The position numbers are program-made. A stretch of 48,288 bases of DNA. It comes from a virus (Duplodnaviria; Heunggongvirae; Uroviricota; Caudoviricetes). Positions 36,001-39,000 of this stretch are shown here, piece after piece. The stretch is taken from the IMG/VR virus record IMGVR_UViG_2923307698_000006; one strand, 5' to 3'. Positions within the stretch are counted from its first letter, which is position 1. Each line of letters starts with the position of its first letter.

Positions 36001-39000
36001 TGCTGGAATGTGCGGGACGGACGCGGTGGCCGTTCGGAGTAAGGGAGCCTGACGGAGATTATCCAGTGACGGTAGTCGAGGCTAAGGGCTTTTTTAACCT
36101 CGCATCCGCGCCTGCGGTAACACTGAATGAGCCATTCGGCCTGTTCTTCAGTGCATGGGGGATGCTGGTACCAGTCAGATTTGAATGCGTGAAAACACCG
36201 TCCGCGCCTGCTGGCAAAGACGGCAGAATCATCAGAATTGTATAATTTGGTATCGTGCGCCATCGGTTGTCTCTGCTGGCGCAGCAGGTGCCAGTTGTTC
36301 AGGCTGGCGTGCGAATTGTAAACCAGAATGCCAGGAAAAAACAAAACCCGCCGAAGCGGGTTAAGTGCGGGTGCGTTGAGGATGCCTGATTCATCAGAGG
36401 TGGCGAGGGATTTCTCCCTCGCCGGGTCTCTTACTCCTCAGGTTCGTAAGCTGTGAAGACAGCGACCTCCGTCTGGCCGGTTCGGATTCGTACCTCGCAG
36501 AGGTCTTTCCTCGTTACCAGTGCCGTCACTATGACGGTGATACAGATGACGATCAGGGCGATTAACATCGCCTTTTGCTGCTTCATAGCCTGCTTCTCCT
36601 TGCCTTTCGGCGCGTAAGAGGCTAACCTACATATGTCTAGCATGAAATTGGCCTCAGATTAATGTTAGGCGTCTTGCAGGACGCGTAATGTTAACTGGGG
36701 CTTTTCTCTGTCTGCCTTACGGTGGCATGCCCGAGGCAGACAGCCTCAAGCACCCGCAGCAATTCTACTTAACTCTCGCTTTACCGCAAACCGTTTTTAC
36801 CCGATATGGGAATTCCCATATCGTAATGAATTCAGTTCCCTAGTCGATCCATCAAAAACACAACCAGGCAGTAAACGCCCACAACAGCAATAACAGCCAG
36901 AGCACCTTCCATTGCCAGTGAAATATCATCCGACATATTCCCTCCTTTGGTGTGAATCCCGGCGAACGTTTTTACCCCCACCGACAAATAACATATACTA
37001 AAAAATCAATAGCTATAGCAACGCCTGTAATTGCAAAGGCTTCAGGCCAGATCATTGGCGCACCTCCTGCGGCGGTTCTGGTAGCGGCATCCAGTCGGTT
37101 ACATTGCGGCTCTGTGTTTCGAAAAATTCATCACCATTACGGACTACATCAAAAAACTCACCGTCTCGATATTGCGCATAAAGAACGAATGCGCCATCAC
37201 ATAAAATAATTACGTGCTGACCATCATCCGGCATTCGCTCACTACAGCTTATCCAACCATCCGGAGTTACCGGATAGTTGGTTGACGTTTCCGAGATTTC
37301 CCGAAAATTATTGGTTGACGAACCCTTATTTTCCCGAAAGTTTCCAGCCTGAAGCATGGCGGCGCTGTCTGGCGGGGCAGCATATAGCGGCACGTATATT
37401 TCCGGTTCCTTATCAGCACCGGGTTGCTCTTCCAGTGAGAATGTCTTTCCGGTAAATCGATTCATATAAAGCACGGGCTCTGCTTCCAGCGAAGCCTGAG
37501 CAACAAGGGCCAGTGCTAAATCCAACTCAATTGCCTCGAGAGAATTTTTGAATACTGTCTGTTTTACTGCAAATTTCATCGCCTTTACATTTTCACTAAC
37601 ATGACTGATTAACTGCTCTTTTGTAAAAGTGATCATCTCATTCTCCTTTGATGCGAATGCCAGCGACAATTGAAGCCTGATAGCTAATTCACTCACAGTA
37701 CCGCCTCCTGAAAATTGCCCTGATAGAACGCCAGTACACGCAGCATAACTTCACTCTTCCGGCACTCGCCAAAGATTATGTTCTGTTGTCTGTCGTAGCG
37801 GCGTATTTCTCCGTCTGGTAACTTTCGAATCAATGTCTGGTCGGTTGCTTTCTCCGCTGCCTTACGCCATACGCGATACACCTGTTCTGATGTAAAAACA
37901 CCGTATTTACCGGGCATGTATAAATCGCCACAAGCCAGTACATCCACAAGGCAACGTCTGACTGAATGCCAGCCTGCTCCCGTCGCTCTCTCCAGTTGTG
38001 ATATCGTCATGCGTTCATTTTTGCGTACCAGCCCGATAATTCGGGCCTTCAGTTCTTCACGCTGTTCGTGTGTAAAAGGTTTCGCCATAAGCGCCTCCGG
38101 CTATCACTTTTCCGATACAACACGGCGGGAAGAATCAGTAATCTGTCGAACAATATCCCGGTGCTTGTTCAGCTCCCGCAGCGCGGCGCAGACTCGCTCC
38201 CACTTCTGAACATCACTTTTCGCCCTGCGCAGCGCCAGGTTTGCCCTGCGCAGGGACGGAAAAATCAGCTCATCTGCTTGCGTTTCGGTAAACGATAGCA
38301 ACGGCTGCACAATGTCCGCCACAGTTTCTGTTTTAATTTCTTCCTGTGTTGCGGCTTCCCGGACTGGTAACGCAGCACCTGCTGGCTGAGGAAAGGCCTT
38401 ACCATCATTTTTCGTTACCGGCGCGGCTTTCGGATCTGCTGGTAAATTACCCCCCGACATGCAGTAACGAAATTTACCGTTCTGATTAACGCGTGCCAGC
38501 CGCCCCGTTGCGGTTACCACCGCCAGCGTGGAAGCAACCTTGCGAGTACTGACGCCGAACTTACCCGCCAGTTCCTCACACGTTTTAGCACCATCCTGAC
38601 CGATAAACTCAACCATCATGTCTGCGGTAACTTTTGGAGCGACCTCTTCGGTTACCACATCCGGCGCTTCAGGTTGTAGTGCCTGCCCTTCGGTTACCCC
38701 GGCTTCACCTTCGACAGCCAGAAACCAGGTGTGACCCGTTTTATCAACAACGCCATTTTTTTTGAGTTCCCACAGTTCGTTAAGAACTTCTTCACGGCTG
38801 ATATCAAGCCGCGCCGCCAGTTCAACAGAATTGGCTTTTCCCATCGCTTTCAGTGCATGCAATACAGTTTCCATCGAAAATTTACCTCGTCAAAAATTCT
38901 CACATACCCTGACGTCCAACGTTTGACCGCCAGCTCTCCCAGTTAAAATTCACCCAACGACCACCATTCATGGTCATACGGTCCATCACCCGATCTCCGA

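Follow-up and report, generated by a model that had tools for sequence, protein, structure and literature searches.

What does it mean when a hok-type toxin gene is found next to a second small hydrophobic reading frame and a perfect palindrome? This question is raised by one locus in a stretch of 48,288 nucleotides from a Caudoviricetes virus (IMG/VR record IMGVR_UViG_2923307698_000006), the whole of which is referred to as the window. The initial annotation of the locus had proposed that two small membrane peptides side by side may indicate a second toxin-like gene. Over positions 36300–37100 the window shows a 100% match to the chromosomes of E. coli O103:H2 str. 12009 and further STEC strains. 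Every gene at the locus is encoded on the minus strand, and the locus lies within the early-right operon (replication to Q) of a lambdoid prophage of E. coli. Our analysis suggests that three independent elements probably lie side by side here, namely a hokD-type toxin–antitoxin (TA) locus, a gene for a 34-aa membrane peptide and a palindrome derived from a KilA-N gene, and that the peptide is neither a second type I toxin nor an antidote required by hok.

The toxin locus consists of the following features:

36431..36586, minus strand: hok (HokD-type) toxin coding sequence, 51 aa (Pfam PF01848, PHROG 251; RefSeq name hokD)
36431..36643, minus strand: mok frame of 70 codons, an N-terminal extension in frame with hok (ORF list)
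36581..36755, minus strand: hok mRNA leader from +1 (~36755, tac element GGGUGCUUGAGG) to the hok AUG (Rfam RF01794)
36762..36790, minus strand: hok promoter with -35 TTTGCG (36785–36790), 17-nt spacer and -10 TAGAAT (36762–36767) (sequence reading)
36600..36709, plus strand: predicted sok antisense gene (promoter, hairpin and U-tract)
36341..36381, minus strand: hok mRNA 3' end with the fbi element CCUCAACGCACCC (36369–36381) and an intrinsic terminator (36345–36362) (fold, terminator scan)

The assignment of hok as a type I toxin, already made in the initial annotation, is borne out by its RefSeq name and by the profile matches of its product, which scores 83.2 bits against Pfam PF01848 (HOK_GEF; cut-off 22) over model positions 1–42 of 42 and 114.7 bits against PHROG 251. 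The upstream leader had been expected to carry mok and the antisense Sok RNA, and both are found in it. The leader matches RF01794 over the full length of the model (1–157) on the hok-sense strand with 114.3 bits (gathering threshold 59 bits; E 8e-27), and two phages, HannyBb and Stx2_14040, carry the 70-aa mok form under the labels "MokW-like" or "gef". The sok promoter (-35 TTGCCT at 36600–36605, 17-nt spacer, -10 TAACCT at 36623–36628) precedes a predicted Sok RNA (~36635–36709, 5' end likewise predicted) that overlaps the mok start codon and Shine-Dalgarno (SD) sequence and folds with -34.5 kcal/mol (z -5.3). Comparison with known hok/sok loci agrees with this reading, as 15 loci from at least eight genera, spanning Escherichia to Photorhabdus and Pantoea, share the sok promoter hexamers and the terminator, with compensated changes in the stem. 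The hok -10 and the region downstream of it are kept in all hokD loci, and an equivalent hok promoter (TTGGCG-17-TAGAAT) is called in Tritos and HannyBb. In the minimum free energy (MFE) fold of 36336–36755 (-176 kcal/mol, z -6.8), nucleotides 1–12 pair with the fbi element CCUCAACGCACCC, giving the expected fold-back.

With the peptide, the structured leader, the mok frame, the sok gene and the tac–fbi fold-back plus terminator of the Hok/Gef type I TA class all present, this is, judged by its sequence, a complete hokD-type type I TA locus of an already well-known kind, for which toxicity and killing are predicted. Following the R1 hok/mok/sok mechanism, a weak promoter would give rise to an ~420-nt hok mRNA whose 5' tac element would pair with the 3' fbi element; Hok would be synthesised solely via the overlapping mok frame, and the mok ribosome-binding site would be covered by the short antisense Sok RNA. 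The R1 literature on this mechanism is summarised in 10.1101/2025.08.07.668861.

Upstream of the toxin locus the operon contains two further small reading frames and a pair of repeats:

36832..36936, minus strand: 34-aa ORF MSDDISLAMEGALAVIAVVGVYCLVVFLMDRLGN, a predicted single-pass membrane peptide (RefSeq WP_001278450.1, hypothetical protein)
36972..37055, minus strand: unannotated 27-aa hydrophobic ORF MIWPEAFAITGVAIAIDFLVYVICRWG (ORF list; AGGAGG 7 nt upstream)
36792..36802, minus strand: right copy of the 11-bp direct repeat GGGTAAAAACG, with the left copy at 36967–36977 (two exact copies versus 0.05 expected)

The 34-aa ORF had been described as a small hydrophobic ORF about 250 bp upstream of hok with an AGGAGG site 5 nt from its ATG. 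Its distance (246 nt from its stop to the hok ATG) and its perfect AGGAGG (36941–36946) stand as described, and the spacing to the ATG is 4 nt. The ORF starts 35 nt past the preceding one, with its SD exposed. Within the window, AGGAGG followed by a start codon 3–9 nt on occurs ten times, exclusively on the gene strand; seven of these sites head ORFs of 108–645 aa, and two belong to the 27-aa and 34-aa ORFs. Hydropathy peaks at residues 11–29 of the peptide (Kyte-Doolittle mean 2.72, the 19-residue maximum), as in small hydrophobic membrane peptides.

The ORF proved to be conserved, and its substitutions are distributed as in a protein-coding gene. Among eight alleles pN/pS is 0.19 in its own frame versus 0.67 and 3.4 in the other frames, and it is 0.24 in comparison with a metagenomic copy that is 20% diverged and in which the adjacent palindrome has decayed (other frames 0.65–3.4 over both comparisons), a signature that is built on few substitutions, namely 14 variable sites in the eight alleles (3, 2 and 9 by codon position) and one pair with 20 differences. 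Of 5426 complete E. coli genomes, 673 (~12%) carry the 34-aa ORF, always labelled "hypothetical". A sister form of 28/29 aa, unannotated and starting with GTG, is present in 1959 of the same 5426 genomes (36%). It is ~45% identical to the 34-aa peptide (59% in DNA), and both subtypes have the motif ALA-IA-V---YCL-V-LMDRL in common; the 28-aa subtype taken alone carries a weak signature (pN/pS 0.46 versus 0.47–0.56 in the other frames).

Searches of Pfam, NCBIfam, PHROGs, PADLOC and PDB gave no meaningful match for the 34-, 28- and 27-aa peptides; for the 34-aa ORF, which was also compared with the Hok/Gef profile, none of the Pfam, NCBIfam, PHROG and PADLOC searches gave a match with E below 0.01, and PDB gave none. 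Among 5.8 billion proteins, queried with a 51-aa in-frame extension of the 34-aa ORF, the family forms 30 clusters, all from E. coli or Enterobacteriaceae, and a homologue outside Escherichia prophages was not found. A full-text search by peptide sequence and RefSeq accessions retrieved no paper on the family, and a recent Hok survey preprint does not mention the upstream ORFs.

These data also bear on the possibility that the 34-aa ORF is nonfunctional, a chance frame kept through recent common ancestry of the prophage copies. The narrowness of the family, the lack of curated family matches, the frameshifted, truncated and fused variants of the ORF in the databases and the small frame-specific constraint of the 28-aa subtype alone would all fit such a chance frame. 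However, the low pN/pS (0.19–0.24) is confined to the frame of the ORF, and frame, start and perfect SD survive 20% nucleotide divergence while the adjacent palindrome decays. SD and frame are retained in the sister subtype as well, and AGGAGG with a start codon marks real genes elsewhere in the window, so that we give a chance frame very little probability. The 34-aa ORF rather looks like a genuine protein-coding gene for a putative single-helix inner-membrane peptide. The peptide would be read from the phage early transcript, after DUF551 and the coupled 27-aa ORF, with translation beginning at the perfect SD and no promoter of its own in the window. Host transporters, superinfection or lysis timing are often found to be under the control of small phage membrane proteins, and the 34-aa peptide may be an independent small membrane protein of the moron/accessory type, probably modulating a membrane process. 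The family is of modest interest, being absent from Pfam, NCBIfam and PHROGs.

The 27-aa ORF is a third tiny hydrophobic ORF at this locus, overlooked by the initial annotation. Its ATG overlaps the stop codon of the DUF551 gene (ATGA), it has full-length tblastn matches in 92 phage records, directly 3' of DUF551-type genes, and its pN/pS is 0.29 versus ~1–2 in the other frames. In a small number of database entries the 27-aa and 34-aa ORFs are fused through an altered length of a G-run; as to a programmed frameshift joining the two at TGGGGGTAA, a recognised slippery motif is absent there. The two copies of GGGTAAAAACG bracket a 175-bp cassette that contains the SD, the 34-aa ORF and the palindrome, and locus L009 represents the cassette-free form, in which the 27-aa ORF abuts the hok promoter.

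Is the 34-aa peptide a second type I toxin, held in check by an unrecognised antisense or trans-acting small RNA? TisB, ShoB, Ibs, Ldr, DinQ and ZorO are small type I toxins of E. coli, and the 34-/28-aa peptides resemble them in length (28–34 aa), in their one hydrophobic helix and in the short polar tail; the ORF moreover adjoins a bona fide type I locus. Two plus-strand promoter-like sites lie opposite the ORF region (36912–36939 and 36971–36999, versus 0.7 expected), and Tritos has one antisense promoter-like site. These weak matches, however, overlap constrained codons or the start codon, and the other subtype, HannyBb included, lacks them or has different ones. Antisense transcripts from them would start outside the SD, and the terminator scan, for which a trans-encoded RNA is beyond reach, revealed no antisense terminator opposite the ORF. 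The leader of the ORF also differs from that of a type I toxin, since no minus-strand promoter was called for it in the window and the 35-nt gap to the preceding ORF holds neither a structured leader nor a sequestered SD. Promoterless and with its perfect SD unsequestered, the ORF would be translated whenever the operon is on. Unlike TisB, ShoB, Ibs, Ldr, DinQ and ZorO, the 34-aa peptide has neither a long structured leader nor a cognate antisense or divergent sRNA gene that could be found; it shares no sequence similarity with these toxins or with any other toxin family searched, and it would be co-transcribed with phage early genes. As ORF and hok are in addition separable, the proposed second toxin-like gene finds no support, and we judge a second type I toxin to be highly improbable.

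The constant place of the peptide beside a membrane toxin raises the question of whether it alters the action of Hok. The peptide might be a functional partner of Hok, with the ORF and hok/mok/sok forming one extended module; it could act as a membrane-level modulator or antidote, as a co-toxin, or as an upstream cistron reading into and tuning hok. The tight and repeated adjacency of ORF and hok could reflect such a functional tie instead of shared descent. The 34-aa ORF is contiguous with hok in at least 661 of 675 records, and two subtypes that are ~45% identical each lie 5' of hokD at a constant spacing (76 nt and 42 nt, the latter from the end of the 28/29-aa form to the hok +1), while the genes farther upstream differ (DUF977, SIR2, unknown genes or a reverse-strand gene in front of the 28/29-aa form). 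Furthermore, the 28-aa subtype has no terminator before hok, and in some contexts a conserved promoter-like sequence, TTGAAT-17-CATATT, lies ahead of the ORF, so that 5'-extended hok read-through transcripts are likely there.

The presence and absence of the ORF tell against a partnership. The complete E. coli genomes contain 12,006 places of the hokD type. Most hokD loci and all other genera sampled have hok without the ORF: 49 of 80 near-identical hokD loci lack both the ORF and the palindrome, the peptide ORF was not found at the hok loci of Kluyvera, Photorhabdus, Citrobacter, Pantoea and Erwinia, and in L009-type loci hok comes straight after the 27-aa ORF. Truncated remnants beside an intact hok are common, with just the last 6–7 codons of the 28-aa ORF remaining in six loci. 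Conversely, the ORF survives the deletion of hok in locus L008, where 34-aa ORF and palindrome are present. This pattern fits linkage by descent within one mosaic block, and a functional partnership with Hok appears improbable to us. We also consider it improbable that prophage hokD loci have the 34-/28-aa peptides as a dedicated fourth component, acting with or against Hok in the membrane or, via read-through, setting the amounts of hok mRNA and Sok in the lysogen. If this were true, nearly half of the E. coli genomes would carry an extended, unrecognised hok/sok module. We instead favour an independent peptide gene, a neighbour of the hok cassette that would have moved with it as one mosaic block. 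We infer that the peptide is expressed, that it inserts into the membrane and that it is independent of hok; the anatomy of the locus, the conservation and coding signature of the ORF, the linkage statistics and the origin of the palindrome are established.

The origin of the palindrome can be read from two overlapping features between the 34-aa ORF and the hok promoter:

36802..36823, no strand: perfect 22-bp palindrome CGATATGGGAATTCCCATATCG, its centre 57.5 bp upstream of the hok +1
36799..36834, plus strand: relic of a KilA-N domain gene, D-M-G-I-P-I-S-stop-stop-I-Q (match to the vB_EcoS-673R7 gene)

A perfect 22-bp palindrome had been noted at 36801–36822; it is indeed perfect, and its position is one base to the right. 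CGATATGGGAATTCCCATATCG is present as a single copy in the window (0 of 100 shuffles), which excludes a repeated element within the window. As RNA it would form a 9-bp stem with an AAUU loop (-14.5 kcal/mol). It was not called as an intrinsic terminator in the terminator scan, and neither the sequence after the stem on the minus strand, GGTAAAAACGG, nor that on the plus strand, TAATGAATTC, has a T-run.

The relic matches the KilA-N gene of phage vB_EcoS-673R7 (Pfam PF04383, 94.5 bits) at 32 of 36 nt. In this phage the gene, named "DNA-binding protein", occupies the same slot, between a 27-aa ORF and a hok locus, and the palindrome with ~14 flanking nucleotides corresponds to a stretch encoding (R/S)DMGIPISELIQ, in which the 22 bases themselves specify D-M-G-I-P-I-S. 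A diverged copy of the relic in locus L030 matches at 37 of 44 nt. In contrast to vB_EcoS-673R7, 36 nt of the gene survive in the window, where the frame is open for 16 codons only and closed by two stops, and a KilA-N protein cannot be made. No KilA-N gene is annotated in this prophage, and none of 80 viral contigs has an intact one within 2.5 kb of hok. By this match the palindrome is a 36-nt remnant of a KilA-N gene at the mosaic joint where the peptide cassette meets the hok promoter.

Two other origins or roles were tried and rejected. A derivation of the 34-aa ORF from the opposite strand of the lost KilA-N gene was discarded because the two align locally with a score no different from the mean of the shuffles. 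The palindrome might also have been a Roi-binding site, given that Roi of HK022 binds within its own gene; HK022 Roi, however, lacks the MGIPI motif and the KilA-N hallmark motifs of the palindrome-bearing genes and is presumably a Rha/ANT-type protein, and no palindrome of at least 12 nt was found in the HK022 nin region.

A remnant may still be functional in place. It could serve at the hok promoter as the binding site of a dimeric DNA-binding protein of the KilA-N type, or its RNA hairpin could terminate or stabilise the upstream early transcript and protect the hok promoter from read-through. Most copies of the palindrome are perfect, which makes a retained function possible, and it remains joined to the hok promoter with three different neighbours upstream (the 34-aa ORF, the paa adhesin gene and the context of L030). 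Within KilA-N genes the stem is kept at synonymous sites while the flanking codons are scrambled, which indicates selection as a nucleic acid somewhere, and the hairpin has the predicted free energy given above. Yet without a T-run it is not an intrinsic terminator, it is missing from most hokD loci including those of the 28-aa subtype, and it has decayed in L002/L003 (1-nt deletion), L008, L030 and L361 (two mismatches) although the adjacent ORF is kept; the absence of an annotated KilA-N gene in this prophage speaks against it as well. A function in place is thus unlikely, and in our view the palindrome has no role at this locus beyond, at most, that of a weak RNA hairpin. It is functionally part of neither hok nor the 34-aa gene. 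The 9-bp-stem hairpin from which it derives recurs in the KilA-N genes of many phages and may have its own function as a nucleic-acid element. The case calls for caution, as even a perfect and conspicuous palindrome can prove to be a piece of coding sequence stranded at a mosaic joint.

Among known hok loci, hok/mok/sok (parB) of plasmid R1 and the chromosomal hokC/mokC/sokC loci consist of the same parts as the locus in the window, namely a Hok/Gef peptide, mok, a Sok gene with promoter and terminator, and the tac–fbi pairing. Unlike these, the window locus sits in the early operon of a lambdoid prophage, and killing and mRNA processing are assigned to it by analogy. The closest relative is hokD (relF) of the cryptic prophage Qin in E. 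coli K-12, which shares 97% nucleotide identity over 36337–36600, comprising the hok coding sequence, its SD, the 3' UTR and the terminator; the downstream genes are also alike in Qin and the window (rem/hypothetical gene, DUF968/ydfU and the Q antiterminator). In K-12, everything upstream of 36600, including the mok start, the Sok gene and the tac element, has been lost to relBE, whereas the regulatory leader is complete in the window. As K-12 hokD retains nothing beyond 36337–36600, the hok locus of the window, while offering nothing new in itself, represents the full-length, ancestral form of the truncated K-12 hokD.

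The observation that a hok-type toxin locus lies next to a 34-aa membrane-peptide ORF and a palindrome is confirmed. The region contains the following features:

36431–36586, minus strand: hok coding sequence (Pfam HOK_GEF, 83 bits)
36581–36755, minus strand: hok leader (Rfam RF01794, full-length match, 114 bits)
start at 36643, minus strand: mok frame of 70 codons, in frame with hok
36600–36709, opposite strand to hok: sok elements, TTGCCT-17-TAACCT followed by a long hairpin and U-tract (fold z -5.3)
36802–36823: palindrome CGATATGGGAATTCCCATATCG
36832–36936, minus strand: 34-aa ORF, AGGAGG 4 nt 5' of the ATG
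36972–37055, minus strand: 27-aa hydrophobic ORF MIWPEAFAITGVAIAIDFLVYVICRWG, perfect AGGAGG 7 nt upstream

The second small hydrophobic ORF with an AGGAGG near its ATG, as claimed in the initial annotation, is thus present. Residues 11–29 of the 34-aa peptide form a strongly hydrophobic stretch, and RefSeq labels it as hypothetical protein WP_001278450.1 (allelic forms WP_001278454, 455 and 460). Its region is kept in 673 of 5,426 complete E. coli genomes, at 1,467 places. Among eight distinct alleles, the variable sites are distributed 3/2/9 over codon positions 1/2/3, and pN/pS is 0.19 in frame, with values of 0.67 and 3.4 for the two alternative frames. A gut-metagenome copy diverged by 20% keeps frame, start and SD, with a pN/pS of 0.24 (pS 0.45, pN 0.11). 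The whole window has ten instances of a perfect AGGAGG with a start codon after it, all of them on the gene strand; seven precede ORFs of 108–645 aa, and the 27-aa and 34-aa ORFs account for two more. The 34-aa ORF is thus very probably a genuine, uncharacterised gene for a small membrane protein. The family is narrow: its 30 clusters among 5.8 billion proteins are unnamed and come exclusively from E. coli or Enterobacteriaceae, and it has no match in Pfam, NCBIfam, PHROGs, PADLOC or PDB.

Whether this peptide might be a second type I toxin had been raised at the outset, and its size and composition do match that class. The other defining type I features were not found, however, and the idea gained no positive support. 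The ORF begins 35 nt past the 27-aa ORF with no promoter called on its own strand, and its SD is both exposed and perfect. The search for an antisense promoter returned two promoter-like sites on the opposite strand (36912–36939 and 36971–36999; 0.7 expected), but these overlap the start codon or coding sequence and would initiate outside the SD, no terminator was found, and the single antisense promoter-like site of phage Tritos is missing in phage HannyBb. We consider a second toxin very unlikely.

The 27-aa ORF had been missed by the initial annotation. Its ATG overlaps the DUF551 stop codon (ATGA), and in the loci read it lies directly 3' of, and in ATGA overlap with, the preceding gene, which is DUF551-type in the window and in BP-4795. 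Conservation of the pattern MxWPEAF...(Y/V)xxCRWG extends over 92 phage records (BP-4795 and VT1-Sakai among them), homologues also occur far from any hok, including near int/xis, and pN/pS is 0.29 versus about 1–2 in the other frames. The 27-aa ORF belongs with DUF551 and not with hok. It is unannotated in the RefSeq records retrieved; a few GenBank entries list it as a “hypothetical protein”. In a few database proteins of 74 aa (P0005, P0008 and P0009) it is fused to the 34-aa ORF through a length change of the G-run at its end (36974–36981 in TGGGGGTAA); these fusions may reflect natural variation, a sequencing error or a frameshift-prone stretch.

Searching phage genomes with the 34-aa peptide (tblastn) gave four weak full-length matches (44–50% identity, E about 0.09), which in phages Tritos and HannyBb, whose loci were both retrieved, lie just 5' of the hok locus. 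They define a sister form:

2017–2105 of locus L013, also in L012 and L095–L097: sister ORF (phages Tritos and HannyBb, UTI89, a BL21 derivative)

The sister ORF encodes 28/29 aa, (M/V)LVLKCALAIAAVMAIYCLAVVLMDRLSD, starts with GTG preceded 5–6 nt upstream by AGGAGG or AGGAG, and ends 42 nt 5' of the inferred hok mRNA start (+1); the palindrome is absent after it in the Tritos and HannyBb loci. It is widespread, occurring in 1,959 of 5,426 complete E. coli genomes (UTI89 and a BL21 derivative among them), and none of the 30 records listed annotates it; one GenBank entry in the protein collection has it as hypothetical. Its upstream neighbours vary (DUF977, a SIR2 gene, two unknown genes or a reverse-strand gene); in contexts without an adjacent, co-oriented upstream gene, a conserved promoter-like TTGAAT-17-CATATT precedes it.

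A profile built from both subtypes was run on all retrieved loci. Among 80 viral contigs sampled solely by near-identical Hok, 16 carry the 34-aa form with the palindrome (76 nt 5' of hok +1), 12 the 28-aa form (42 nt 5'), three the palindrome alone and 49 neither. In 60 hok loci of species-representative genomes the ORF was present in two (E. ruysiae and a MAG contig), and the profile search found none in those of Kluyvera, Photorhabdus, Citrobacter, Pantoea and Erwinia. Seen from the ORF, a copy of the 34-aa form is contiguous with hok in at least 661 of 675 records having it. Single partners are nevertheless lost: locus L008 lacks hok from -10 onward and retains the 27-aa ORF, 34-aa ORF and palindrome; in L009-type loci hok directly adjoins the 27-aa ORF; six viral loci have an intact hok beside the last 6–7 codons of the 28-aa ORF; and in paa-carrying prophages the palindrome and just the final two codons of the 34-aa ORF are left. 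This is the pattern to be expected of neighbours in one mosaic block whose left edge has repeatedly been replaced, and not that of two mutually dependent genes. The linkage to hokD is notable but separable, and a peptide that works together with Hok is unlikely, if somewhat less so than a second toxin. In L026-type hokD loci (12 of the 80 viral contigs) a different small membrane protein gene (59 aa, two hydrophobic segments, AGGAGG SD) lies directly 5' of hok. By a rough count from the class list, a small hydrophobic ORF immediately precedes hok on the same strand in roughly 55 of the 80 sampled hokD loci, which may be coincidence.

The palindrome is, as initially described, perfect and 22 bp long, but it lies one base to the right of the 36801–36822 first assigned. 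It is unique in the window and absent in 100 shuffles. Located 47–68 nt 5' of hok +1, it is unlike a terminator because no T-run follows the stem, and no intrinsic terminator was called there. An exact 11-bp direct repeat, GGGTAAAAACG (36792–36802 and 36967–36977, minus strand; 0.05 copies expected by chance), brackets a 175-bp cassette of SD, 34-aa ORF and palindrome. This cassette is missing in L009-type loci; either its insertion or a deletion between the repeats would fit the two forms.

Scanning viral contigs with the 16-nt core of the palindrome yielded 120 loci, 56 linked to hok and 64 not. Most of the 64 fall within genes for KilA-N domain proteins (Pfam, 94.5 and 71.8 bits):

loci L281–L356 and L158–L277: KilA-N genes of viral contigs with the palindrome 22-mer

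There, ATG GGA ATT CCC ATA encodes a conserved M-G-I-P-I, and the full 22-mer D-M-G-I-P-I-S. Escherichia phage vB_EcoS-673R7 has a KilA-N gene, in opposite orientation, exactly between a 27-aa ORF and a hok locus; 36799–36834 matches this gene at 32 of 36 nt, and a diverged copy 5' of hok in locus L030 at 37 of 44. The plus-strand frame of the window reads D-M-G-I-P-I-S-stop-stop-I-Q versus D-M-G-I-P-I-S-E-L-I-Q in the KilA-N gene. By this match, the palindrome is a short KilA-N gene relic left at a recombination joint. Several hok-side copies have decayed (L002 and L003 by a 1-nt deletion, L008 by single changes, L361 by two mismatches) despite retention of the neighbouring ORF, which speaks against a strong function of the palindrome at its current location. 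Within KilA-N genes, an unbiased subfamily sample chosen by amino-acid pattern (18 distinct nucleotide variants) is near-invariant at synonymous sites of D-M-G-I-P-I-(S/T): GAT, CCC, ATA and xCG are each found in 18 of 18, only the two codons forming the 4-nt loop vary (GGA/GGG, ATT/ATC), and the flanking codons are synonymously scrambled. In distant members, found with the core, the end residues co-vary with the palindrome kept (D...S, V...T, A...A, N...L). Selection inside these genes thus seems to act on the nucleic acid itself, maintaining a hairpin with a 9-bp stem. A connection to HK022 Roi was examined and rejected.

Over 36300–37100 the window shows 100% identity with E. coli O103:H2 str. 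12009 and with many further STEC chromosomes; the annotated context is a lambdoid prophage. Its genes, all on the minus strand in window coordinates, are ordered int/xis, dicB, racR, ydaS/ydaT-like, replication genes, DUF1627, DUF977, DUF551, a 105-nt hypothetical, hokD, a hypothetical, DUF968, rusA and the Q antiterminator, followed by lysis, head, tail and effector genes. Lying between replication genes and Q, the hok/34-aa ORF region is therefore inside the early-right operon. The slot between DUF977/DUF551 and hok takes accessory genes (morons) and IS elements in related loci and is clearly a hot spot for such cargo. Its contents include a paa adhesin gene, a SIR2-family gene and a KilA-N gene (among L003, L004, L007, L011, L095, L096 and L279), two unknown genes in UTI89, and insertions of IS481 within the hok leader, IS5 within the 27-aa ORF and ISEsa1 past the hok 5' end.

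The hok-type toxin locus itself, and the proposal that its leader holds mok and antisense Sok, were borne out; the hok/mok/sok interpretation is correct and already known. Rfam names RF01794 “sok”, yet its match is on the hok-sense strand, running up to the hok AUG, and the 70-aa mok form is labelled “MokW-like” or “gef” in related phages. The sok promoter, hairpin and U-tract are kept in hok loci of Escherichia, Kluyvera, Citrobacter, Photorhabdus and Pantoea, with compensated changes in the hairpin stem. Fold-back structure was likewise recovered: in the 420-nt RNA 36755–36336, nt 1–12 are predicted to pair with CCUCAACGCACCC just 5' of the terminator (z -6.8), a modelled pairing that corresponds to the known tac-fbi arrangement. 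The Salmonella prophage sRNA IsrK gives a sub-threshold Rfam hit (36341–36422, minus strand; 27.7 bits versus a gathering threshold of 50) that coincides with the hairpin and terminator of the hok 3' UTR and probably reflects no more than hairpin-plus-terminator resemblance. According to a recent survey, hok is enriched in prophages (10.1101/2025.08.07.668861). In K-12 hokD, only the part corresponding to 36337–36600 matches (97%) and the leader is replaced by relBE; the window therefore carries in full a locus that K-12 has in truncated form.
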